Source: Escherichia coli
GTDB lineage: Bacteria; Pseudomonadota; Gammaproteobacteria; Enterobacterales; Enterobacteriaceae
NCBI RefSeq assembly: GCF_051903065.1
Contig: NZ_CP178441.1
Strand: one strand, 5' to 3'
DNA length: 42,047 nt
A program made the position numbers and the translations under genes. Under the pieces are notes generated by a model. That model did not search any database. It saw only the letters and a program-made list of their open reading frames with translations, and had not been told where the DNA came from. Shown here piece after piece: positions 9,071 through 21,291 of the stretch. The number at the start of each line of letters is the position of its first letter. Position 1 is the first letter of the stretch.

Positions 9071-11704
9071 GTGATTTCGCGTCACATCCCAATGCGTAAT
9101 GTAAAAAAAAGCAGTTTTTTTAGACTTGCTGAATATTTACAAGATTCGCAGAACAAACAGGAACGAGTTGGCGCTGTTAAGACTACAAACTGTCATCAGG
9201 AAAATATCCTTGATGCTGCTCGTTATGAGATTGAACCAACACAACGACTAAATACGCGTGCTAAGGGGGATAAAACTTATCATTTGGTTATTTCTTTTCG
9301 GCCTGGAGAAAACCCACCACAGGAGGTTTTAGATGTAATAGAAGAACGTATGTGTACAGCGTTAGGTTATGGTGAACATCAACGTGTAAGTGCAGTTCAT
9401 TACGATACAGACAATGTACATATTCAGATCGCAATAAACAAAGTTCATCCCAAAACTCACAACATTCATACTCCTTATAACGATTATAAGATTCGGACAG
9501 CCGTATGTCAGGAACTGGAAAAAGAGTTTGGCCTCGAAAAAGACAATCACCGGGCAAGTAAGACGCGATCCGAAAATAATGCGGCAGATATGGAAAGGCA
9601 TTCCGGCAGAGAAAGTTTGCTTGGCTGGATAAAGAGGGAGTGCGCAGATCAATTAAAGAGTGCGGCTAACTGGCAAGAGTTACATAAGGCAATGCGCCAG
9701 AATGGGCTTGAGTTACGCCAGAAAGGGAATGGATTCGTTATTACTGGTCCCGATGGCCTTGCTGTAAAAGCCAGCTCTGTAGATCGCTCTCTGTCCCGAG
9801 CAGCGCTTGAAAAGAAATTAGGCTCGTTTGAGTCTTCCATACCCGACACGAAACCTTCCAGACTTTCCCCGGAAGCGATTAAACAACGATTCGGTTCAGC
9901 TGTACATGTTAAGCGGCCCGGAGAACGCCCCCCACCAATTCGTGAAAACCGACAGGTTCACCTTGGGGAGATTCCCGTTATGTCGATTAACAATGGTAAA
10001 CGCTATGAGGGCAAACCGCTGGGTTCTCAGGGTGCAAGTACCTCAGTTCTTTACGGGCGCTACCAGAGTGAACAGCAACGGCTTACTGCTGCCCGTAACG
10101 AAGCACTGCGTCTGGCAAAGGTTAAACGTGATCGCCTCATTGAAAATGCCAAAAGGACAGGCCGGTTAAAGCGGGCAGCTATCAAGTTACTGAAAGGACC
10201 AGGCGTGAATAAACGCCATTTATATGGTTTGGCAAGTAAGGCGCTTGGGGAAGAACTTGAACGGGCAAATGCCATTTATAAAAAAGACCGGCAGGCAGCT
10301 TATGACATTCATAAACGCCGTACATGGGCTGACTGGCTGCAGTTCAAAGCCGCAGGTGGTGATGATGAAGCGCTGAAAATTTTACGCCAGCGGAATGCAC
10401 AACAGGCTCGTAAAGAGGCCAACATTCTGCATGGCGATAAAGTCAAAAAAGATGGCCGTATCCCTGGATTGAAACCGGACAGTGTAACGAAGGAAGGGAC
10501 GATTATTTACCGCGTGGGAGAGAGTGCTATCCGTGACGGTGGTAAACGTCTGGATGTATCACGTGATGCTGGTGATGACGGTCTTCATGCCGCACTGCTG
10601 ATGGCTAAACACCGTTACGGAGACAAACTCACCGTTAACGGCAGTTTTGAATTTAAAAAACGCATTGTAGCTGTAGCCGCTGCGCGTGAGCTGGACGTGT
10701 CATTTACCGATCCTGAACTGGAAAAGTTGAGGCAAATTCTGGCTAAGAAAGCGGCCCGCGAGCGTGAATACATCCACATCCCCTTTGAGCAAAGAGGCAA
10801 GGCCCGACAAGCCGGGGCCATGTGGGACACCGAAAAGAAATCCTGGTTTGTCGGTCCTTACGCAACCAGAGATCGGATTGAAAACTTTATCCGAATGAAT
10901 GAGGAAAAAGACAATGAGCAAAGACGACAAAGATATGCCGGAACAGAACGAACTGAGGCAGGACGAGAACGAAGCGGCAATGGCAATGCTACTGGAGCAA
11001 ATGAACCAGGAGTTACAGGACGAAGCCCCTCCGCTGATGCCGGAAACGGATATGGAACTAGCAACAGCGGAAGACGAACTGGCTCAGGCGATGGCGTTAC
11101 TACAGCAGGAAGCCAGCCAGGAAGGAGTGATGACACCCGTACAGGGAGAAGTCGAGCAGCCGAATCAAATGGTGAACGAGGACATCGTAAGCCCAACGTT
11201 GCGCGACCTGGACGCCAGCCGCCGCCCACAGCAAAAAACCGTCTGCGAGCAATGTCCGAACTCGGTATGGTTCGCATCGCCGGAGGAAGTGAAGTGTTAC
11301 TGCCGGGTAATGTTCCTGACCAGTTGGAGCACAAAACAGCCGAACGTACTGATCAACTGCGACGGGATATGGCTGGGGCAGGAGGAATAACAACACCTGC
11401 TGAGGTTAAGAAACCGCTGAGTAGTGCTGAAAAATATATCAATGAACGTGAGCAAAAACGCCTTAAAGGGTTCGATATACCGAAACATAGAGGGTATAAT
11501 TCTACTGATAAAGGTCTGTTTGAGTATGCAGGCCAACGTAAAAGCGGGCTGGAAACGTTAGCCCTGCTAAAACGGGATGATGAAATTGTTGTGATGCCTG
11601 TCAGCGATTACACCGCCCGGAGACTGAGCAATCTTAAAGTCGGGGAGTCAGTCACACTTACCCCTTCCGGTTCAGTTAGGACAACGAAAGGAAGAAGTCG
11701 ATGA
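9071..11704 (+). CDS. traI: TraI relaxase (MOB-P type), GTG start
   Basis: N-terminus matches recalled RP4 TraI, including the catalytic Tyr region (RLAEYLQD) and the His motif HYDTDNVHIQIAINKVHP. C-terminal third is a low-complexity G/S/R-rich linker. Confidence 0.85.
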   Translation: MISRHIPMRNVKKSSFFRLAEYLQDSQNKQERVGAVKTTNCHQENILDAARYEIEPTQRLNTRAKGDKTYHLVISFRPGENPPQEVLDVIEERMCTALGYGEHQRVSAVHYDTDNVHIQIAINKVHPKTHNIHTPYNDYKIRTAVCQELEKEFGLEKDNHRASKTRSENNAADMERHSGRESLLGWIKRECADQLKSAANWQELHKAMRQNGLELRQKGNGFVITGPDGLAVKASSVDRSLSRAALEKKLGSFESSIPDTKPSRLSPEAIKQRFGSAVHVKRPGERPPPIRENRQVHLGEIPVMSINNGKRYEGKPLGSQGASTSVLYGRYQSEQQRLTAARNEALRLAKVKRDRLIENAKRTGRLKRAAIKLLKGPGVNKRHLYGLASKALGEELERANAIYKKDRQAAYDIHKRRTWADWLQFKAAGGDDEALKILRQRNAQQARKEANILHGDKVKKDGRIPGLKPDSVTKEGTIIYRVGESAIRDGGKRLDVSRDAGDDGLHAALLMAKHRYGDKLTVNGSFEFKKRIVAVAAARELDVSFTDPELEKLRQILAKKAAREREYIHIPFEQRGKARQAGAMWDTEKKSWFVGPYATRDRIENFIRMNEEKDNEQRRQRYAGTERTEAGRERSGNGNATGANEPGVTGRSPSADAGNGYGTSNSGRRTGSGDGVTTAGSQPGRSDDTRTGRSRAAESNGERGHRKPNVARPGRQPPPTAKNRLRAMSELGMVRIAGGSEVLLPGNVPDQLEHKTAERTDQLRRDMAGAGGITTPAEVKKPLSSAEKYINEREQKRLKGFDIPKHRGYNSTDKGLFEYAGQRKSGLETLALLKRDDEIVVMPVSDYTARRLSNLKVGESVTLTPSGSVRTTKGRSR
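10899..11390 (+). CDS. out-of-frame gene embedded in traI: acidic N-terminal half (TraH-like) plus Cys-rich C-terminal half
   Basis: 163-aa ORF in an alternative frame, exactly over the low-complexity linker of TraI. RP4 encodes the acidic TraH inside traI. The C-terminus CEQCPNSVWFASPEEVKCYCRV...CDG has a zinc-ribbon-like Cys pattern. Confidence 0.45.
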   Translation: MRKKTMSKDDKDMPEQNELRQDENEAAMAMLLEQMNQELQDEAPPLMPETDMELATAEDELAQAMALLQQEASQEGVMTPVQGEVEQPNQMVNEDIVSPTLRDLDASRRPQQKTVCEQCPNSVWFASPEEVKCYCRVMFLTSWSTKQPNVLINCDGIWLGQEE

Positions 11705-11889
11705 AACAAAATTCCGAAGAATTAGGGCTGTTACTCGCCATGCTAAATACGGGGCATGGTGGTGCATTGGCAGGAAACCCAAACGAAGCCAGCCTGAATA
11801 CAGGCAAGGTTCAACAACTGTTAAACGTGATGGACGTCACCGCTGATGACTGGAACATAAAGGAGCAAGTCCATGAGAAAGCCAAATAA
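11701..11889 (+). CDS. small hypothetical ORF (62 aa) between traI and traG
   Basis: ATG overlaps the traI stop (ATGA). Overlaps the traG start by 17 nt. No recognisable motif. Confidence 0.3.
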   Translation: MKQNSEELGLLLAMLNTGHGGALAGNPNEASLNTGKVQQLLNVMDVTADDWNIKEQVHEKAK

Positions 11890-13816
11890 TGCCGTAGGGC
11901 CGCAGGTCCGTAATAAAAAGAAGGCAGCGAAAGGGAAACTGATCCCGGCGATGGCTATAACTTCACTGGCGGCTGGCATTCAGGCCGCCACACAGTATTT
12001 TGCTTACAGCTTTAATTATCAGGAACTGTTGGGGCCGAACTTTAATCACATCTATGCGCCGTGGTCCTATTTCAAATGGTATTCAGCATGGCATGAGCGC
12101 TTACCTGATGCGTTTTTTGCTGCTGGCAGTGTGGGGGCGGCGGTTGCTGCCGGTGGCCTAGTTCTGACCGCGCTGACAAGTATGATGAAAGCAAATTCAT
12201 CCAAGGCTAACGAATATCTTCATGGCTCTGCAAGATGGGCTGATGAGCAGGATATCAGAGATGCTGGTTTGCTGAATGATGAAGGTGTTTATGTTGGTGC
12301 GTGGGAAGACAAAAACGGTCAGTTGCGGTATCTGCGTCACAACGGCCCGGAACATGTTCTGACGTATGCACCTACCCGTTCTGGCAAAGGTGTCGGCCTG
12401 GTTGTTCCCACCTTGCTTTCCTGGAAACATTCAACGGTAGTGGCTGACCTTAAAGGTGAACTGTGGGCGATGACGGCGGGCTGGCGTAAAGAATATGCCA
12501 AGAATCTGTGTCTGAAATTCGAACCTGCTGCAGCTAATGGTTCCGTCGCCTGGAATCCTCTTGATGAAATCCGTGTGGGCACTGAAAACGAAGTTGGCGA
12601 CGTTCAGAATCTTGCCACGCTGATAGTTGACCCGGACGGTAAAGGACTAAATGACCACTGGCAGAAAACATCCCAGGCGCTTTTAGTCGGTGTGATCCTC
12701 CATGTACTTTACAAGCACAAAAATGAAGGTACGCCAGCAACGCTTCCGTATGTTGACTCCATCATGGCCGACCCGGAAAGAGGGGCAGGGGAATTGTGGA
12801 TGGAAATGACGCAATATAGTCACATAAATGGCGAGAATCATCCGGTGGTGGGGGCTGCCGGTCGTGACATGATGGACCGCCCGGAAGAAGAAGCCGGTTC
12901 CGTGCTGTCTACCGCAAAATCTTATCTCGCCCTTTTCCGTGATCCAGTTGTGGCTCGTAACGTCAGTGAGTCACATTTTAAAATAAAAGACCTGATGAAT
13001 CATGATGATCCGGTTTCGCTGTATATCGTTACTCAGCCTAATGATAAAGCTCGTCTGCGTCCGCTGGTACGAATCATGCTGAACATGATTGTTCGTTTGC
13101 TGGCTGACAAGATGGAATTTGAGCGTGTAGATAACAACCTTACGTTATGGCAGCGTTTTAAACAGGCGTTTGGTTTTTCAGTTCAGGGAACAAAAAGAGT
13201 ACAGACAAAGAAAACCTACAAACATCGTCTTCTGGGAATGATCGATGAGTTTCCAAGTCTGGGTAAACTCGAAATCATTCAGGAATCATTGGCTTTCCTT
13301 GCAGGTTATGGCATCAAGTTCTACCTCATCTGCCAGGATATTAATCAGTTGCGTAGCCGTGAAACAGGTTATGGGCCGGATGAAACAATAACCTCGAACT
13401 GCCATGTGCAGAACGCATATCCACCTAACCGTACTGAGACTGCAGAGCACCTTTCTAAGTTGACCGGACAAACAACGGTTATCAAAGAGCAGATCACAAC
13501 CAGCGGGAAACGTGCCAGTGCGATATTGGGTGGAGTATCCAAAACCATTCAGGAAGTACAGCGCCCACTTCTGACAGTGGATGAATGCCTGCGTATGCCA
13601 GGACCTAAGAAGAATGCTGAAGGTCTGATTACCGAGCGCGGCGACATGGTTATTTATGTGGCAGGTTTTCCGGCTATCTATGGAAAACAGCCGTTGTTTT
13701 TCCAAGATGAGATTTTCTCGCTTCGTGCTTCTGTACCTGCACCAAAAGTTACCGATCGGATTCGAGCTGTAGCTGCCGCGAATGATGACGCCAGTAATGA
13801 GGCTATCGCAATATGA
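11873..13816 (+). CDS. traG: TraG type IV coupling protein (VirD4 family)
   Basis: N-terminus matches recalled RP4 TraG (NNAVGPQ..., LHGSARWAD). Walker A APTRSGKGVG. Confidence 0.85.
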   Translation: MRKPNNAVGPQVRNKKKAAKGKLIPAMAITSLAAGIQAATQYFAYSFNYQELLGPNFNHIYAPWSYFKWYSAWHERLPDAFFAAGSVGAAVAAGGLVLTALTSMMKANSSKANEYLHGSARWADEQDIRDAGLLNDEGVYVGAWEDKNGQLRYLRHNGPEHVLTYAPTRSGKGVGLVVPTLLSWKHSTVVADLKGELWAMTAGWRKEYAKNLCLKFEPAAANGSVAWNPLDEIRVGTENEVGDVQNLATLIVDPDGKGLNDHWQKTSQALLVGVILHVLYKHKNEGTPATLPYVDSIMADPERGAGELWMEMTQYSHINGENHPVVGAAGRDMMDRPEEEAGSVLSTAKSYLALFRDPVVARNVSESHFKIKDLMNHDDPVSLYIVTQPNDKARLRPLVRIMLNMIVRLLADKMEFERVDNNLTLWQRFKQAFGFSVQGTKRVQTKKTYKHRLLGMIDEFPSLGKLEIIQESLAFLAGYGIKFYLICQDINQLRSRETGYGPDETITSNCHVQNAYPPNRTETAEHLSKLTGQTTVIKEQITTSGKRASAILGGVSKTIQEVQRPLLTVDECLRMPGPKKNAEGLITERGDMVIYVAGFPAIYGKQPLFFQDEIFSLRASVPAPKVTDRIRAVAAANDDASNEAIAI

Positions 13817-14346
13817 AAAAAATGACCCGCTATGCCGCCATTGGTGTTATTTCGGCTTCATTGATTGGTGCAGTTGTGTGTTGCTTTGGATATGCCGCCG
13901 GGTTACGCATCAATACCACGAAAAGTATCCCTGTTGGCTTGTACAAAATCAGCCAGAAAGCGCCAGAGAAGGGCGACTATGTAATTTTCTGCCCGCCTGA
14001 AAAGGCTATTTTCTCACTGGCACAGAAGCGTGGTTACATCGGCAGCGGCTTTTGTCCAGGGGGGTATGGCGAGATGATGAAGCGGATTTTAGCGGCTAAA
14101 GGTGATGAAGTTGCTTTTCGTGATGATGGTGTTTACGTCAACGGACAGTTATTGCCTTACAGCAAGCCGTTAAGTGTTGATCCGGGCGGGCGTAAACTGC
14201 CCGCCATTCGTGAAGTATACACGTTGGGTAAATCAGAACTGTTGCTGATGACTGACCGCAGCGCATCTTCATTTGACGGGAGATATTTCGGCGCGGTCAC
14301 AAAGTCACAGATTATTTCTACGATATTACCTGTAATGACCTGGTAA
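13813..14346 (+). CDS. traF: TraF pilin-maturation peptidase (signal peptidase-like)
   Basis: Signal peptide and S26-like motif SFDGRYFG. Synteny after traG. Confidence 0.75.
   Translation: MKKMTRYAAIGVISASLIGAVVCCFGYAAGLRINTTKSIPVGLYKISQKAPEKGDYVIFCPPEKAIFSLAQKRGYIGSGFCPGGYGEMMKRILAAKGDEVAFRDDGVYVNGQLLPYSKPLSVDPGGRKLPAIREVYTLGKSELLLMTDRSASSFDGRYFGAVTKSQIISTILPVMTW
14088..14100. promoter_or_regulatory. KorB-type operator TTTAGCGGCTAAA inside the traF coding sequence
   Basis: Perfect OB consensus located within the CDS (encodes RILAAKG). Confidence 0.55.
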
Positions 14347-14365
14347 AAAGAATAGGGGAATTGAT

Positions 14366-14695
14366 ATGGGGTTATTTCATAAGAGTGCGGAGAAGGAGAA
14401 GTTAGAGGCACTGGAAAAGGTTATTTCAAAAACCAATCGTGGCATTTTTAAACGAATTGATGAAAATCGCGAGCTACTCGAATTGTTATATGAAAAAGCA
14501 CCAGAGCTTATGGATAAATGTTTCTGGATTCGATGCTGGATTGAATCTCAGGATGAATTTTTAAGTAAGTTGGCAGAGATTTCTGGCGTGGAAAATCGAA
14601 CCTATAACCTTACTCCTGATAAACCTTATCCACGTCCTTTTCCGAAAAAACCAGATTGCCTTATGGATTCTTCGAATGAGGATAATGCCGTATGA
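14366..14695 (+). CDS. hypothetical protein (109 aa), inserted between traF and the topoisomerase gene
   Basis: Good RBS (AGGGGA) before the ATG. AT-rich codon usage unlike the flanking transfer genes. Confidence 0.5.
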   Translation: MGLFHKSAEKEKLEALEKVISKTNRGIFKRIDENRELLELLYEKAPELMDKCFWIRCWIESQDEFLSKLAEISGVENRTYNLTPDKPYPRPFPKKPDCLMDSSNEDNAV

Positions 14696-14874
14696 ATACT
14701 CTCATTATGTATGCTTTGAAAACTATTCGTTATCGCAGCCTCATTGCTGAGGCACTTTTGGGTAATTTATCAAAGTGTGAAGATACAAAAAGGCGAAGTG
14801 AAATCATCACGGTTTGTCATCGCTCCGCTGATGTCCTGATAGTGAAGAAATTAAAGTGCTTATGGCAGAAATAG
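14692..14874 (+). CDS. hypothetical small basic protein (60 aa), translationally coupled to the upstream ORF
   Basis: ATGA start/stop overlap with 14366..14695. Confidence 0.45.
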   Translation: MNTLIMYALKTIRYRSLIAEALLGNLSKCEDTKRRSEIITVCHRSADVLIVKKLKCLWQK

Positions 14875-14884
14875 GGAGTGTCAA

Positions 14885-16915
14885 ATGAGAGTATTCATTG
14901 CAGAAAAACCAAGTGTTGCGAAAGCCATCGCTGAAATATTAGGCGCAACCAATAAAAAAGACGGTTACATTGAGTGCGGCAGTGACTATGTGACCTGGTG
15001 TTTTGGTCATATGTTTGAGCAGGCTGAACCTGATGAATATACACCAGACAATGTGCCTCGTAATGAAAGCGGTAAAAAAATCTGGCGAGAAGATGAACTG
15101 CCAATTATCCCCGAAAAATGGATTATTAATCCTCGTGAAGATGCTGAGAAACAGCTGAAAACCATCCGGCATTTGGTTGAGCGAGCTGACACGATTGTAA
15201 ATGCTGGCGATCCAGATCGCGAGGGGCAGTTACTGGTTGATGAAATCCTTGATGACATGGGATGTACTAAACCGGTTCTGCGTTACTGGTGTAATGCGAA
15301 TGATACGGTAAGTGTCACAAGGGCGTTGAAAGGACTTGAGAACAACGATAAATATGTAAATTTTGGACGTGCAGCTCTTGCGCGTGGTCGGGCTGATTGG
15401 TTGGTTGGAATGAACCTTTCAAGAGGATTCACGTTGTCGGCAGCGCGTGGTGGCTCGCGTGTTCTGTTGACGGTCGGGCGAGTTCAGACACCAACGCTGG
15501 CACTTGTTGTTGCCCGCGATCTCGAAATTGAAAACTTCAAACCAATTCCTTATCACAATATTAAAGCTGTCTTTAAACATGACAAAGGAGCGTTTGTTGC
15601 GGCATGGCAGGCCAGAGAAGATCAGCCAGGGCTTGATTCAGAGGGAAGGCTTATTGACACTAAAGAAGCTGATAAGCTAGTAGCGGCTTTAACCGGAAAA
15701 TCCGGTAAGGTTGTTGAATATAAGCAAGAGCCAAAGAAAAAATATCATCCAAAAGCCTATTCTCTTGGCAGTATCACCGCTGTTGCTTCAAGTAAGTTTG
15801 GTTATTCTGGTGAGCAAGTGCTGGCTATATGCCAGTCTCTTTATGAAACGCATAAACTTACCAGTTATCCACGTTCTGATAGTTCTTATTTGCCTGAATC
15901 TCAACACGCAGATGCACCTCAAATTCTGGATTCTCTTCGGGTTACTTATCCGGGAATAGCTGCTCTAATCGATAAGGCTGATCCAAAAGTAAAATCAAAA
16001 ACTTTTGATGACTCTAAGGTTACAGCGCATCACGGCATTATCCCAACGATGCACAAAGGTAACGTTGAAAGGCTTACGCCAGAAGAGCGTAATATTTACG
16101 ACCTTATCGTAAGAACATACCTTGCTCAATTTTATCCAGTACATGAATATAAAGCGACATCAATTATTATTGATGTTAATGGTGAAACATTTGGGGCCGG
16201 TGGCCGCGTAACGACTAAAAATGGATGGAAGGATGTTTATTCAGATGGAGAGGATGAAGAAGAAAAAGAAAATGAGTCTGAACAGACTCTTCCATCAATG
16301 AGAAATGGTGACGAAATTATTTGTGCTCAGGCACAGCGGCAGGATGCTAAAACTAAAGCTCCGCGTCGTTTTAATGACGGTACACTCAACACTGCAATGG
16401 AAAATATTCATAAGTATGTTGAAGACCCGGCTCAGAAAAAATTACTGCGGGAAGGTGATGGTATTGGCACATCAGCTACCCGCGCCACAATAGTTGCTGA
16501 TTTAAAGAAACGTGGTTTTATTGAAAACAAAGGCAAAGACATTATCAGTACCAAGCTGGGAAGGGGGCTGATAGCCATTCTGCCAGAACTGGTTAAAAGC
16601 CCGGTAATGACAGCCATCAACGAACGTATGTTACTGGAAATAGAGCAGGGGAAACGTGACGTTGATTCTTTTGTGAAGATTCAGGAAAAATTTGTACGAG
16701 AGCAGATTAAGGTTATTAATGCCGGAGCTATCAAAGTTGCCGGTGGTGTGCAAATTTCTGACAAGTACAAATGCAAGGTATGTGGTAAAGGACTTATTCG
16801 TCGTCCGTCCAAAAAATCCGGTCACTTCTGGTCTTGCAGTGGTTATCCCAATTGTAAAGAGTCGTACCCAGATATTAAAGGTAGTCCAAACTATAACCCC
16901 ATAAAACGCGCTTAA
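14885..16915 (+). CDS. traE: DNA topoisomerase III (TraE-like)
   Basis: Toprim N-terminus MRVFIAEKPSVAKAIA, topoisomerase IA core, and a C-terminal zinc ribbon (CKVCGK...CSGYPNC). RP4 TraE is a topoisomerase III homolog. Confidence 0.85.
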   Translation: MRVFIAEKPSVAKAIAEILGATNKKDGYIECGSDYVTWCFGHMFEQAEPDEYTPDNVPRNESGKKIWREDELPIIPEKWIINPREDAEKQLKTIRHLVERADTIVNAGDPDREGQLLVDEILDDMGCTKPVLRYWCNANDTVSVTRALKGLENNDKYVNFGRAALARGRADWLVGMNLSRGFTLSAARGGSRVLLTVGRVQTPTLALVVARDLEIENFKPIPYHNIKAVFKHDKGAFVAAWQAREDQPGLDSEGRLIDTKEADKLVAALTGKSGKVVEYKQEPKKKYHPKAYSLGSITAVASSKFGYSGEQVLAICQSLYETHKLTSYPRSDSSYLPESQHADAPQILDSLRVTYPGIAALIDKADPKVKSKTFDDSKVTAHHGIIPTMHKGNVERLTPEERNIYDLIVRTYLAQFYPVHEYKATSIIIDVNGETFGAGGRVTTKNGWKDVYSDGEDEEEKENESEQTLPSMRNGDEIICAQAQRQDAKTKAPRRFNDGTLNTAMENIHKYVEDPAQKKLLREGDGIGTSATRATIVADLKKRGFIENKGKDIISTKLGRGLIAILPELVKSPVMTAINERMLLEIEQGKRDVDSFVKIQEKFVREQIKVINAGAIKVAGGVQISDKYKCKVCGKGLIRRPSKKSGHFWSCSGYPNCKESYPDIKGSPNYNPIKRA

Positions 16916-16930
16916 TTGTAGAGGCACTAT

Positions 16931-17116
16931 ATGACTGATACTAATGCAGTAATTCGCCCTGATGTTAACGACGCAATACAGGAAAAATATCGCGATCTGA
17001 TGACACCGGGATATGTAGTCGAATTTTCACCCGATGAGGCTGATCTTGTGGGGGCATTCGAAGATGATGCGCTGAATGTACGTGACGCATACGAAAGCGC
17101 TTTTGATGCGGAGTAA
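16931..17116 (+). CDS. small strongly acidic protein (61 aa)
   Basis: RBS GAGG before the ATG. Very high Asp/Glu content. Lies immediately upstream of the ArdC-like gene. Confidence 0.45.
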   Translation: MTDTNAVIRPDVNDAIQEKYRDLMTPGYVVEFSPDEADLVGAFEDDALNVRDAYESAFDAE

Positions 17117-17121
17117 GGGCC

Positions 17122-19239
17122 ATGGCAGAAGCTAAAGCGAAAAAACCATTTTATGAGATTGTGGCTGAAAACCTGATAGCCCAGCTTAAAGAGGGGACTG
17201 CTCCATGGCAGAAACCATGGAACCCCGGCGCTCCTGGTGTCGCATTGCCTATGAACCCTACGACGGGTAAACGTTATAAAGGCATTAACGCTATTCACCT
17301 TATGGCGCAGGGTTATAGCGATCAACGTTGGATGACCTATAAGCAGGCGACGGCTGCAAATGCGCAGGTAAGGAGAGGCGAAAAAGGCACGCCGATCCAA
17401 TACTGGAAATTTACTGAGGAACGCATCAAACGCAACGATGATGGTAGCGTTGTGCTCGATAAAGACGATAAACCGGTAAAAGAAACTGTCCAACTGGAGC
17501 GACCGAAGGTATTTAACGCAGTTGTGTTTAATGCGGAGCAGATTGACGGTCTACCGCCGATGGCCGTTCGCCAAGATAAGAGCTGGAACAGTATTGAACG
17601 TGCTGAATCTATTCTCGAAGCCTCTGGCGCGAAAATCTCTCATGACCAGGTTGACCGGGCTTTTTACCGTATGTCTACAGACAGCATTCATTTGCCGCAG
17701 CAGGCTTCCTTTCCAAGTGCTGATCGTTACTATGCCACTGCACTTCATGAATTGAGCCACTGGACAGGTCACGCATCGCGTCTTGATCGTGACCTGTCTC
17801 ATCCTTTTGGAAGTGAAGGTTACGCCAGAGAAGAACTACGCGCAGAGATTGCCAGTATGATCATTGGCGATGAACTGGGGATAGGTCATGACCCTTCCCA
17901 GCATGTTGCCTATGTAAAATCTTGGATTAAAGCCTTACAGGATGATCCGCTGGAAATTTTCCGTGCAGCAGCTGATGCTGAAAAAATCCAGGGGTTCGTG
18001 TTGGGCCTTGAACAACAGAGAATACAGGAACAACCGGTAACTCTGGAAAGAGAGCAGCGCGAAAAAGAGCATAATGAGGTAATGGCTGAGGTACAGCGGC
18101 TGACTAACCCGCAGATTTTCGATGCGGAAACAGCTCAACTCTATCATTTCACATTCATGACACTGGAGCAGACAGCTGAGGAAGCTGGTTACGTTACCTA
18201 TTACAGCCGTGGCACTGGTGAGCTGGGCGAAGAAACTATTCGGGTTAATTACGAAGACAGTAATGGAAATACTATTCCTGTTCATACTGATGTGGTTGGG
18301 CGCGGAAAAGCATTGACATATATCGGTGATGAGCGTGTCCCCGGAACGGGATTTTCATCCGATAATGAATGGCAAAGCAATGCTCTTAAAACCGCTTTCG
18401 CCAGCATGGATAACAACCTAACTTTAGTCGCTAAAAAAGTTCATAGTCAGATTGAAAATATCAGTGGAGACCCGCGAGAGTTACCGCAGGATGTTAAGTT
18501 TCCTAAAAACTGGTGGCCTAATTCCAGTTTTCTGGCGTCGACCCCAAGTGTGGAGAACTCAAAAGCAGCTGCAGAGGCTGATATGACCACTAAAACTGAA
18601 ACGTCTATTACATCAGCGCAGCAGCGCCAGTATCGTGCAGAGAAATTTATTCTTTCGAATCTCGATAGTGGTCTTTCTAAGCACGTTCAGAATATGAACC
18701 GTCGCCAGCTTACGTTGTCACGAAACGTTCTCTATGATGCTCAAAATAGCAATCAGGATAGTGATTTTTGGCAGCGTAACAAGGAATTTCATTCTTCGTT
18801 CAGTCAAAACTGGAATGAGGCTCAGGACAAGATCAAGAGCGCATACCGTGAGATTGATTTTGCATTATCACTTCTACCAGAGCCGAAATATAACATTGTG
18901 GAAAATCCTGGTCAGAATGAGCATGTGAATATAATCATGCAGACCAACAGTGCAGTTAAGGCGCTGGCCGCTGTTAACGAAGGGGATAATCGTTCAATTT
19001 ATGACTCACGTCTCATCAATAACGGTAAGGTCGATCTGAATGACCTGCAGAACAATTTTTATCAAACACTTGAAGCAGAAAAAGCAGCCTTAAAGCAAGG
19101 TATTATCAAGCCTGATGATGAGATTAGCGTGCTCCCACCAAGAGAAGCACAGGAATGGTATCAAGACCGTGTTGAAGGCTTGACGTATAGGAAATTGAAA
19201 AACCAGTCGATACCATTGTCCACGCCTTATGCCACGTGA
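17122..19239 (+). CDS. ardC: ArdC-like antirestriction protein (N-terminal ssDNA-binding domain plus HExxH metalloprotease) with a roughly 400-aa C-terminal extension
   Basis: N-terminal ...APWQKPW... ArdC-type segment and HExxH motif ALHELSHWTGH. Total length 705 aa versus about 300 aa for canonical ArdC. Confidence 0.7.
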   Translation: MAEAKAKKPFYEIVAENLIAQLKEGTAPWQKPWNPGAPGVALPMNPTTGKRYKGINAIHLMAQGYSDQRWMTYKQATAANAQVRRGEKGTPIQYWKFTEERIKRNDDGSVVLDKDDKPVKETVQLERPKVFNAVVFNAEQIDGLPPMAVRQDKSWNSIERAESILEASGAKISHDQVDRAFYRMSTDSIHLPQQASFPSADRYYATALHELSHWTGHASRLDRDLSHPFGSEGYAREELRAEIASMIIGDELGIGHDPSQHVAYVKSWIKALQDDPLEIFRAAADAEKIQGFVLGLEQQRIQEQPVTLEREQREKEHNEVMAEVQRLTNPQIFDAETAQLYHFTFMTLEQTAEEAGYVTYYSRGTGELGEETIRVNYEDSNGNTIPVHTDVVGRGKALTYIGDERVPGTGFSSDNEWQSNALKTAFASMDNNLTLVAKKVHSQIENISGDPRELPQDVKFPKNWWPNSSFLASTPSVENSKAAAEADMTTKTETSITSAQQRQYRAEKFILSNLDSGLSKHVQNMNRRQLTLSRNVLYDAQNSNQDSDFWQRNKEFHSSFSQNWNEAQDKIKSAYREIDFALSLLPEPKYNIVENPGQNEHVNIIMQTNSAVKALAAVNEGDNRSIYDSRLINNGKVDLNDLQNNFYQTLEAEKAALKQGIIKPDDEISVLPPREAQEWYQDRVEGLTYRKLKNQSIPLSTPYAT

Positions 19240-19503
19240 GCCTTTCTGCTTTTCCCACCACTCCGGTGGTTTCCCTCTCTGTATGGTCGATTTTTATACC
19301 GTAACAGGCTGTTTTTTATACTTTCACCGATTCCCGGGCACACTTAGCCTGTGTCAGGCCGGCATATACCTCAGTAGACTGATATCCCGCGCGTTTTTCT
19401 TCAGCCCTGATACATTCAGCCCCGCAATGGCCCGGCGGTATACCATCCGGCAGCCACACAGCACGCATTCGAACGGGTCACGACTCAGGAACTGTTTCAC
19501 CAT

Positions 19504-21291
19504 TTGTGCATAGCACACTTTCGCCACTGGTTCATGGAGGACGCTGACAGCCCGGATGAACTGAAAAGCGCTCTGGATGCGCTTGGCCCAGAACCGGGAG
19601 ATAATGAGGCTGTTTTCCTTGGTGAAGATGGAGGGCGAATTCTTCCAGAATTCAGTCTGAACGTTACGCAGGAAAATACTCCAATCAATGTCCCCTACAA
19701 AGAACGCAATGAAGCTAAAGCGCTTGGGGCAAAATGGGATCGAACCGAACAGACCTGGTTTGTACCAAAAGGTGTATCTCTGGATAAATTTGCAAAATGG
19801 GTTGGTGGGCCAACTGCAGAAAACAATTCATCTGTCGTATCTGTGAAAGAAGTAACGCCAAAAGTGGGTGAGCGTCAGAATCTGGCTGTCCCTTATAAAG
19901 ACCGCGCAGAAGCTAAAGCAGCTGGTGCTAAATGGGACAAAGAGAAAAAAACTTGGTATGCCGAAGCTGGGGCAGATATGCAAAAACTGGCGAAGTGGAA
20001 ACCGGAAAATGTGGTGATCGAACAGTCACCGGCCATGACGCTAAAGGAGGAAGTAGAAACCGCGCTGAAAGATATTGGGTGCATCCTTGATGCCGATACT
20101 GACAAAGGACAGAAACATCCAATTATGGATGGTAAGAAGCATCGGATCACGGTAGAGGGAGACAAGAAAGGGGAAAAGTCAGGTTTTTATATCATCTATA
20201 CTGACGGCCATCCTGCGGGCTTCATGCAGAACAACCGCACCAAAGAAGAGTTACGTTGGTCTTCCAAGGGAAATGTGATGTCCGACGAAGAAAAAGCGCT
20301 CCTGCGGGCGCAGGCTGCTCAGAAACAGGCCGAAAAAGCGGCACAGCAGCAAAAAGACCATGAGTCCTCTGCAAAGCGTGTTCAAAAGCAGCTCGCTAAA
20401 CTCAATGAACCTCAGCAGCAAACTGCTTACCTGAAGAAGAAAGGGCTGCAGGTACATAAAGGTGTGTTCACTGATAAGGACGGACAGAAAACCTTTATTC
20501 CTGCTTATGATGTCCATGGTAAGCAATGGACTATGCAGTACATCAACGAGGACGGCACAAAACGTTTTGCCAAAAATGCTCGCAAAGAGGGATGTTTCCA
20601 TGTCATTGGCGGGCTGGATGCGCTTAAAAAATCTCCGGTGTTGATTGTGGCCGAAGGTTACGCAACGGCAGGGAGCATCACAGAGGCTACTAATATACCA
20701 ACGGTCGCCGCCTTCGATTCAGGTAATCTGGAATCTGTCGCGAAAACGCTTAAAGAAGCCTACCCCGATAAGCCAATCATCATTGCCGGTGATGATGATA
20801 TTTCTCAGTCATGCAAAATGAAGGTGAAGGATAAAGCCAGTGTAAACGTCGGCAGGGAAAAAGCGCTGGAAACAGCGAAAGCTGTCGGCGGTGTGGCTGT
20901 GTTTCCAGTTTTTGCTAAAGGTGAATTACCTGGGAAAGACGAACTCAGCCAGATTAAACCGGCGGCGTATCTTGCACACCAGACCGCCTCGCGCAAACTG
21001 GAGGCCCATACGAGCGGTGATAAGCCACTCTCGGATGCCGAAGTGAAGGTTCTGCAGGCAGCACAGCTATCGGAAAAGCAGCTTGATATTATTCGCCGCG
21101 CTGATCGTTACACTGACTTTAACGATCTGGCCGTAAATAGTTCTCTTGGCCGGGAAGGTGTGGCGATGCAGTTGAAAGCCGTCATTGCTGACCAGCTGAA
21201 TAAAAAACAGCAGCAGTCACAGGTCCAGATCGAAGAGAAGAAACTCGTTCAGGAAAAAGAGAAAAAACGGACCATTCGCCACGCTATGTAA
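19504..21291 (+). CDS. traC: TraC-like DNA primase (Toprim domain); start uncertain (alternative ATG at 19534)
   Basis: Toprim segment VLIVAEGYATAGS...IIIAGDDD. Two N-terminal repeats of the ...AK..GAKWD...K.W motif. Confidence 0.75.
   Translation: MCIAHFRHWFMEDADSPDELKSALDALGPEPGDNEAVFLGEDGGRILPEFSLNVTQENTPINVPYKERNEAKALGAKWDRTEQTWFVPKGVSLDKFAKWVGGPTAENNSSVVSVKEVTPKVGERQNLAVPYKDRAEAKAAGAKWDKEKKTWYAEAGADMQKLAKWKPENVVIEQSPAMTLKEEVETALKDIGCILDADTDKGQKHPIMDGKKHRITVEGDKKGEKSGFYIIYTDGHPAGFMQNNRTKEELRWSSKGNVMSDEEKALLRAQAAQKQAEKAAQQQKDHESSAKRVQKQLAKLNEPQQQTAYLKKKGLQVHKGVFTDKDGQKTFIPAYDVHGKQWTMQYINEDGTKRFAKNARKEGCFHVIGGLDALKKSPVLIVAEGYATAGSITEATNIPTVAAFDSGNLESVAKTLKEAYPDKPIIIAGDDDISQSCKMKVKDKASVNVGREKALETAKAVGGVAVFPVFAKGELPGKDELSQIKPAAYLAHQTASRKLEAHTSGDKPLSDAEVKVLQAAQLSEKQLDIIRRADRYTDFNDLAVNSSLGREGVAMQLKAVIADQLNKKQQQSQVQIEEKKLVQEKEKKRTIRHAM

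Follow-up and report, generated by a model that had tools for sequence, protein, structure and literature searches.

We analysed a 42,047-nucleotide stretch of Escherichia coli DNA (contig NZ_CP178441.1; hereafter the window), which is essentially a complete conjugative plasmid of ~42 kb, and within it the interval between traF and topB (traE) of the IncP-1-like transfer operon Tra1, where two small open reading frames (ORFs) are found. Our analysis indicates that this interval is a variable slot holding one intact gene, here called ORF1, and the dead remnant of another, ORF2, and that the two are independent modules; to this explanation as a whole we assign a probability of roughly 0.7. The slot is bordered on the left by the conjugative signal peptidase gene traF (13813-14346, + strand; NCBIfam PRK13884, 238.8 bits against a 156-bit cut-off) and on the right by topB (14885-16915, +), which encodes a 676-residue DNA topoisomerase III (NCBIfam PRK07726, 719 bits against a 597-bit cut-off) and has the Shine-Dalgarno sequence GGGAG at 14874-14878 (+). 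ORF1 (14366-14695, +) begins with ATG, encodes 109 residues and is preceded by a Shine-Dalgarno sequence of its own, GGGGA, at 14355-14359 (+). The ORF2 remnant (14692-14874, +) encodes 60 residues, its ATG overlapping the TGA of ORF1 (gtATGA).

The region of interest is 100% identical to Salmonella pCFSA664-2 and to ten further plasmids of ~41 kb from E. coli, E. fergusonii, Shigella and Salmonella, and traF is annotated as such in the identical plasmids as well. Together with pMCR_1511, pHS102707 and pEN3600, pCFSA664-2 forms an unnamed enterobacterial subgroup of IncP/P-1 clade II, plasmids that carry mcr-1, blaKPC-2 and blaIMP genes in Enterobacteriaceae (PMC9499019; PMC5660977). A first-pass annotation of the window had described two AT-rich ORFs inserted into the otherwise contiguous RP4-type order traG-traF-traE, and in this respect it was correct. 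The GC content of ORF1 is 0.385 and that of ORF2 is 0.383, against 0.478-0.486 for traF and traG, 0.431 for topB and 0.454 for the whole window, and the spacing between traF and topB is 538 bp, against 14 bp in the IncP-1 relatives R751, pTE_T100_2 and pYKAM033. One or both of the small genes are missing in close relatives, so that they are not core transfer genes conserved throughout.

The 60-residue ORF is a pseudogene and not a gene as it stands. Plasmid pYDC107_41, which is 99.7% identical, has 130 extra bases at this locus and an annotated protein of 108 residues; the start codon of its gene overlaps the stop of ORF1, and the stop codon overlaps the start of topB. Alignments with this intact gene place the junction of a 130-bp frameshifting deletion at 14834-14835 of the window: residues 1-48 of the ORF are native and, after the residues SADV, 12 out-of-frame residues follow (LIVKKLKCLWQK). 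The earlier description of the second protein as very basic is true of the 60-residue product, with an isoelectric point (pI) of 9.8, but it reflects the out-of-frame tail; the intact protein is acidic, with a pI of 4.8. AlphaFold2 (AF2) models the intact protein as a confident four-helix bundle with a predicted local distance difference test score (pLDDT) of 94.8, of which the remnant retains helix 1 and part of helix 2 only, and in an identical RefSeq plasmid the Prokaryotic Genome Annotation Pipeline (PGAP) places no annotation at the remnant. Intact ORF2, for its part, is a real gene under purifying selection, the ratio of nonsynonymous to synonymous substitution rates (dN/dS) being 0.11-0.21 between clades. 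Its family comprises ~25 clusters at 50% identity in a search of 1.8 billion proteins and shares the segments IRxRSLIAEAL, SxDVIEHIAQ, LIQDLExAL and P..EI..L; the window copy, keeping residues 1-48, is not full length.

ORF2 has been lost repeatedly. Full-length ORF2 is present in 79 of the 100 PLSDB plasmids with ORF2 DNA, and at least five independent deletion alleles occur among ~100 sequenced relatives. These are the 130-bp deletion of the window (~11 PLSDB records), a 104-bp deletion in pS58-43k, a 226-bp deletion in pB16EC1050-2, pEN3600 and others, a 65-bp deletion in pGABEEC10_3 that fuses residues 1-104 of ORF1 in frame to residues 19-108 of ORF2, and a deletion that takes the whole of ORF1 together with most of ORF2, in pSTEC2018_607-e and at least two other plasmids of E. 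coli. The ORF1-ORF2 chimera of pGABEEC10_3 (L032, 301-888) is 195 residues long and is still coupled to topB. In each of the five alleles the 41 bp preceding the topB ATG are retained, GGGAG Shine-Dalgarno sequence included. The locus is present in 58 of 5,426 complete E. coli genomes and is plasmid-borne every time. Both ORF1 and ORF2 are dispensable for plasmid persistence in nature; for ORF1 this follows from the persistence of whole-slot deletions.

How, then, do the two genes come to lie side by side? The related backbones that we compared share a TraI of 871-878 residues, a TraG of 647-648, a TraF of 177, a TopB of 675-678, a TraD of 61-69 and an ArdC-primase fusion, and they differ in what lies between traF and topB. 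Two of them (L024 and L025) have an ORF1 homologue alone, a third (L023) has an ORF1 homologue together with an unrelated Walker-A (P-loop) protein of 151 residues, and three more (L019-L021) have an ORF2 homologue alone, coupled to topB. The more distant Pandoraea plasmid pPA35 has an ORF1 homologue alone, again coupled to topB, and canonical IncP-1 plasmids (R751, pTE_T100_2 and pYKAM033) have nothing. The 151-residue protein of L023 (5330-5785) occupies the second slot position and has the Walker-A sequence GKTGTGKST, with weak P-loop Pfam matches only. ORF1 and ORF2 occur together in the window clade only, the absences elsewhere being confirmed by local tblastn. In the IncP/P-1 clade II backbone, small accessory genes occupy a variable slot at the traF-topB junction, and ORF1 and ORF2 are independent single-gene modules rather than a functional pair or the two-gene cassette that had been proposed. 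Moreover, between the window and L019 nucleotide identity over 11873-17116 steps from ~81% across traG and traF to ~91% across topB, exactly at the slot, and because of this step a recombination breakpoint, or mosaic boundary, appears to coincide with it; the corresponding protein identities are 84% for TraF, 67% for ORF2 and 97% for TopB. The insertion is genuine in comparison with canonical IncP-1, yet it represents an old, variable and recombination-prone slot rather than a recent cassette.

These observations bear directly on the idea, raised in the first-pass annotation, that such a coupled pair might be a toxin-antitoxin system, in the present case a type II pair in which one of the two, ORF1 or ORF2, is the antitoxin and the other the toxin. 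The intact arrangement does have the expected look, with two genes of ~108 codons each, a 4-bp overlap and an acidic upstream protein, and repeated loss of the downstream gene while the upstream one is kept (at least four times) resembles toxin decay. However, each gene stands alone in sister backbones and they are joined in one clade only, and both are deleted together in plasmids of the pSTEC2018_607-e type. The sister-backbone contents and the deletion pattern therefore leave no basis for an obligate coupled pair of the toxin-antitoxin kind. Neither protein matches a toxin-antitoxin family: searches of Pfam, NCBIfam, PHROGs and PADLOC with ORF1, the ORF2 remnant, intact ORF2 and the ORF1 alignment gave a single match, to MtrR, at noise level (16.7 bits). 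ORF1 has no DNA-binding domain, and intact ORF2 is itself acidic. We also considered ORF2 as a HEPN-like toxin on account of an Rx6H arrangement (R44-x6-H51) and rejected it, the arginine column being occupied by G, V, K, Q and other residues in homologues. We regard a toxin-antitoxin pair as extremely improbable.

What remains intact in the window is ORF1, which is a genuine gene under purifying selection and not a chance ORF. Its product is a cytoplasmic helical protein, acidic (pI 5.3), translated from a gene with its own ribosome-binding site. A single-sequence search finds homologues in 77 clusters and a profile search in at least 817, with the window protein scoring 1e-36 to 1e-37 against close relatives in the latter; all 817 clusters are hypothetical proteins and none has a Pfam domain. 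The family is marked by three motifs, all present in the window protein: the GIxKRIDENRELLELL helix (residues 26-41), W..W..SQDEFL (54-66), within which W58, Q62 and D63 are invariant in the family alignment, and a C-terminal YPRPxP (87-92). In an alignment of 42 diverse homologues the columns of the 16-residue segment GIxKRIDENRELLELL are at least 90% conserved, and the nearly invariant 13-residue motif KRIDENRELLELL, with columns conserved to the same degree, is encoded at 14450-14488 (+). A hidden DNA or RNA element beneath the motif was considered and ruled out: 13 of 13 motif codons vary synonymously across 10 loci on different elements, and the constraint therefore acts at the level of the protein. 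An Rfam search of 13500-15500 gave no match.

Outside the motif, ORF1 evolves 3-4 times faster than the flanking core genes; in the same plasmid pairs the nonsynonymous distance dN is 0.21-0.31 for ORF1, 0.05-0.13 for traF and 0.07-0.11 for topB. The dN/dS of ORF1 is ~0.1, a value that comes from the single pair with an estimable dS, which at 2.2 is near saturation. The AF2 model is all-helical with a pLDDT of 84.5, and neither it nor the model of the ORF2 protein, which is likewise purely helical, shows an enzyme-like or DNA-binding fold. A sequence profile search of the PDB gave a best E-value of 0.64 for ORF1, and a fold search against AFDB50 returned uncharacterised homologues only; one AlphaFold Database match bears a CI-type helix-turn-helix annotation, a single case. 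Some homologues have C-terminal extensions, and for these there is no Pfam or NCBIfam match. The papers that we consulted describe neither ORF1 nor ORF2.

The genomic surroundings of the ORF1 homologues offer a further indication of function. We inspected 12 contexts, a small and non-random sample. The family resides on proteobacterial conjugative elements, with motif carriers spanning Enterobacterales, Burkholderiales, Acidithiobacillus and Aeromonas elements, and in the sampled contexts it is found mostly within the operon of the coupling protein. In Citrobacter pK1219-2 and Acidovorax pYSCONJ the homologue immediately precedes the gene of a VirD4-type coupling protein, in an IncU plasmid it immediately follows one, and in IncP-like backbones only traF stands between the coupling-protein gene and the homologue. 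In IncX and IncX5 plasmids the coupling-protein gene is 1.6-2.8 kb upstream of it and the local gene order is thermonuclease-...-ORF1 homologue-DUF6012-topB-hha-hns, and ORF1 homologues are often found upstream of topB-hha-hns; we found no literature on DUF6012. IncX4 itself has no ORF1 homologue. We also considered an IncX4 transposon-mutagenesis screen (PMC8725589) as evidence on ORF1 and set it aside as uninformative, the arms of its deletion primers not mapping to the ORF1-bearing IncX plasmid.

On the basis of these contexts and of the helical models we tentatively propose, at odds well short of even, that ORF1 is a dispensable accessory factor in DNA transfer and establishment, one that binds other proteins and is not an enzyme. 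It would be translated, by way of its own ribosome-binding site, from the transcript that runs from traG through traF to topB, and its product would associate with the DNA-transfer and establishment machinery (the coupling protein, TopB or the primase). The KRIDENRELLELL helix would bind a conserved partner, and through it ORF1 would influence transfer or establishment, neither of which would require it. The ORF2 remnant would give no functional protein; at most it may carry ribosomes from ORF1 toward the topB start. A broader and more speculative version, which we consider possible though rather doubtful, is that the ORF1 family is an unrecognised, widespread family whose nearly invariant 13-residue helix binds a universal target, either the coupling protein or a conserved host protein, and so tunes DNA transfer, or establishment in new hosts, with the traF-topB slot serving as a dedicated docking site at which IncP-like backbones exchange such factors.

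Several observations weigh against our proposal for ORF1. The coupling proteins encoded beside ORF1 homologues are highly diverged while the ORF1 motif is nearly invariant, and a universal host target or self-assembly therefore fits better than a plasmid-specific partner. Four of the 12 contexts, those in Acidithiobacillus, Paraburkholderia and two metagenomic elements, have neither a coupling protein nor topB within 6-7 kb; here the homologue is one of a series of small hypothetical genes, with H-NS, DUF4942, a metallophosphatase, an integrase or ParAB nearby. The sample of contexts is, as stated, small and not random, and no annotated homologue, among the at least 817 clusters, informs the function of ORF1. 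Finally, there are plasmids without ORF1, found in at least three isolates of E. coli, that are typed as conjugative, and any role of ORF1 in transfer is for this reason non-essential.

Some of the same evidence speaks for what we take to be the main alternative, namely that ORF1 (together with intact ORF2, where present) acts on the host or recipient, promoting establishment or countering defence, and binds a conserved bacterial protein to the benefit of the incoming element. A motif that is near-invariant across very different elements, in a protein the rest of which evolves 3-4 times faster than flanking core genes, would suit such a role, as would the patchy distribution and low GC content, the small-ORF setting of the distant homologues (long co-directional arrays near H-NS, DUF4942, integrase or ParAB) and the establishment-type functions of the neighbours, TopB and the ArdC-primase fusion. 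Against it stands the order of entry in RP4, where the side of oriT with the relaxase and primase genes is the last to reach the recipient, so that the slot does not occupy a leading-region position. Nor did general fold searches find any similarity to a known anti-restriction or anti-CRISPR fold, no dedicated anti-defence library having been searched. We judge this alternative possible, though on balance we doubt it.

Proximity to topB invites another explanation, in which the small genes would be dedicated partners or regulators of topoisomerase III, their translational coupling to topB reflecting an action on TopB. In three arrangements the last small gene meets topB in an ATGA or near overlap (the ORF1 homologue in pPA35, the ORF2 homologue in L019-L021 and ORF1-ORF2 in pYDC107_41), and in IncX and IncU plasmids, too, topB has an ORF1 homologue upstream. 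Against this, canonical IncP-1 and IncX4 plasmids have topB and neither small gene, there are ORF1 homologues without any topB nearby, and ORF2 homologues also occur after trbI or traV, without topB. Moreover, topB expression does not need ORF1 or ORF2, because all deletions spare the topB Shine-Dalgarno sequence. We consider a dedicated TopB partner unlikely.

A module directed at competing plasmids, acting by fertility inhibition, as also suggested in the first-pass annotation, or by entry exclusion, would be in keeping with the position of ORF1 homologues near coupling-protein genes, and there is general precedent, since small genes of transfer operons can inhibit the coupling proteins of other plasmids. 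However, neither protein has a Pfam, NCBIfam, PADLOC or PHROG match, these libraries not having been checked for fertility-inhibition models, and the plasmid already carries trbK. We think this reading very unlikely.

A further feature of the slot is an inverted repeat, found by repeat search, whose left arm, ATGAATACTCTCATT (14692-14706, +), lies on the ORF2 start and whose right arm, AATGAGAGTATTCAT (14884-14898, +), lies on the topB start codon. The arms are perfect 15-nt reverse complements and place the two start codons opposite each other. One could imagine that this stem makes topB translation depend on ribosomes arriving from ORF1 and ORF2. A perfect 15-nt complement exactly on both start codons has an estimated chance expectation of ~3e-4 in 800 nt, both arms outlast the 130-bp deletion, and the long-range stem is present in both the minimum-free-energy and the centroid RNA folds of the deleted and the intact versions alike. 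The z-scores of the folds, however, are only -2.0 and -1.6, and the repeat is missing in sister clades. Plasmid pB16EC1050-2 has one central stem mismatch that is uncompensated, and Asn-3 of P0078, a 93%-identical representative, points to the same mismatch in that subgroup; moreover, the left arm is gone in the pGABEEC10_3 and pSTEC2018_607-e alleles. As modelled, the stem would keep both start codons inaccessible unless it were opened by ribosomes travelling from ORF1, and we record it as unexplained rather than functional; RNA-level coupling seems to us quite unlikely. A search for internal promoters gave one weak match only, at 14814-14843 (TTGTCA and GATAGT at 18-nt spacing upstream of topB, 9 of 12 positions), which was created by the 130-bp deletion and is at or below shuffle expectation. 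A terminator search around the slot likewise gave one weak hairpin, at or below shuffle expectation.

Beyond the slot, the window has an IncP-1-like backbone comprising ssb, trfA, kleE, korA, incC, korB, kfr, traM-L-K, traJ-I-G-F and trbB-L. Its Tra1 genes follow the order traJ-traI-traG-traF-topB(traE)-traD-traC on a single strand, beside the divergent traK-L-M, with the two extra ORFs between traF and topB; traI occupies 9071-11704 (+) and traG 11873-13816 (+). Inside traI, in another frame, an ORF of 163 residues (10899-11390, +) stays open in all relatives examined, R751 and Pandoraea pPA35 among them, and is conserved in them. Its C-terminal motif reads CxxCPNSVWFASPxEVKCYCRVMF; there is no Pfam or NCBIfam match, and the PLSDB gene table for the RefSeq record does not list the ORF. 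This layout is the one known for RP4 traH. Bridging the junction of traI and traG, and overlapping both, is an ORF of 62 residues (11701-11889), a hypothetical protein by annotation and without a family match; an ORF of 31-53 residues is called at its position in four of five related backbones examined. Between topB and the ArdC-primase gene lies an ORF of 61 residues (16931-17116, +), extremely acidic (pI 4.05), which is the traD equivalent, its counterpart in related backbones having the Pfam domain PF27712 (TraD_b_g-type). The ArdC-primase (traC-like) gene itself (17122-21291, +) is split into 17122-19239 and 19504-21291 by a 351-bp fragment at ~19184-19534, beside a CTTG. The fragment divides what is a single 1272-residue ORF in pCFSA664-2 and explains the 351-bp length difference between the two plasmids; its first 349-350 bases match ~1,900 enterobacterial plasmids at up to 100% identity, many of these matches being annotated as IS91-family transposase.

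The window itself is ordinary, with one unexplained accessory gene and one pseudogene, and the finding is real but modest. Its chief interest lies in the ORF1 family, which is large, conserved in its motif, linked to conjugative elements and entirely unannotated, so that a function for ORF1 could extend to hundreds of hypothetical genes on conjugative elements. A slot in which small genes are exchanged and repeatedly eroded also provides a handle on the accessory factors that shape the spread of IncP/P-1 clade II plasmids.

How does this locus compare with known systems? The window resembles the Tra1 region of RP4 and R751 in having TraJ, TraI with an embedded TraH-like ORF, TraG, TraF, TopB/TraE, a TraD_b_g-type protein and an ArdC-primase TraC, and it shares with canonical IncP-1 plasmids the trfA, korA, incC, korB and trb backbone. 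It differs from R751 in a TraF that is ~57% identical to that of R751, and from canonical IncP-1 in a GC content of 45% and in that the 14-bp traF-traE spacing is replaced by an interval of 538 bp containing ORF1 and the ORF2 remnant. The intact version of the slot looks like a type II toxin-antitoxin operon, being made of two genes of ~100 codons with a 4-bp overlap and an acidic upstream product, and is unlike one in that family homology and a DNA-binding antitoxin domain are lacking, the partners occur separately, and either or both genes are lost naturally. Type IV secretion systems employ small, acidic, helical chaperones or adaptors, such as VirE1 and the coupling-protein-binding IcmS/IcmW, and ORF1 is similar to these in being small, acidic, all-helical and cytoplasmic and in belonging to a coupling-protein operon. 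The leading regions of conjugative elements contain arrays of small anti-defence and establishment genes. The distant ORF1 homologues, in their long co-directional arrays of small hypothetical ORFs, are reminiscent of this arrangement, whereas ORF1 of the window lies in the relaxase/primase operon and, in the general searches made, matched no known anti-defence family. Finally, classical IncP-1 plasmids have accessory insertion sites between oriV and trfA and between Tra1 and Tra2. The traF-topB slot is like these sites in that it tolerates foreign DNA of different composition and varies among close relatives, and unlike them in that it lies inside the transfer operon and holds single, small, promoterless ORFs translationally linked to their neighbours in place of transposons or resistance genes.

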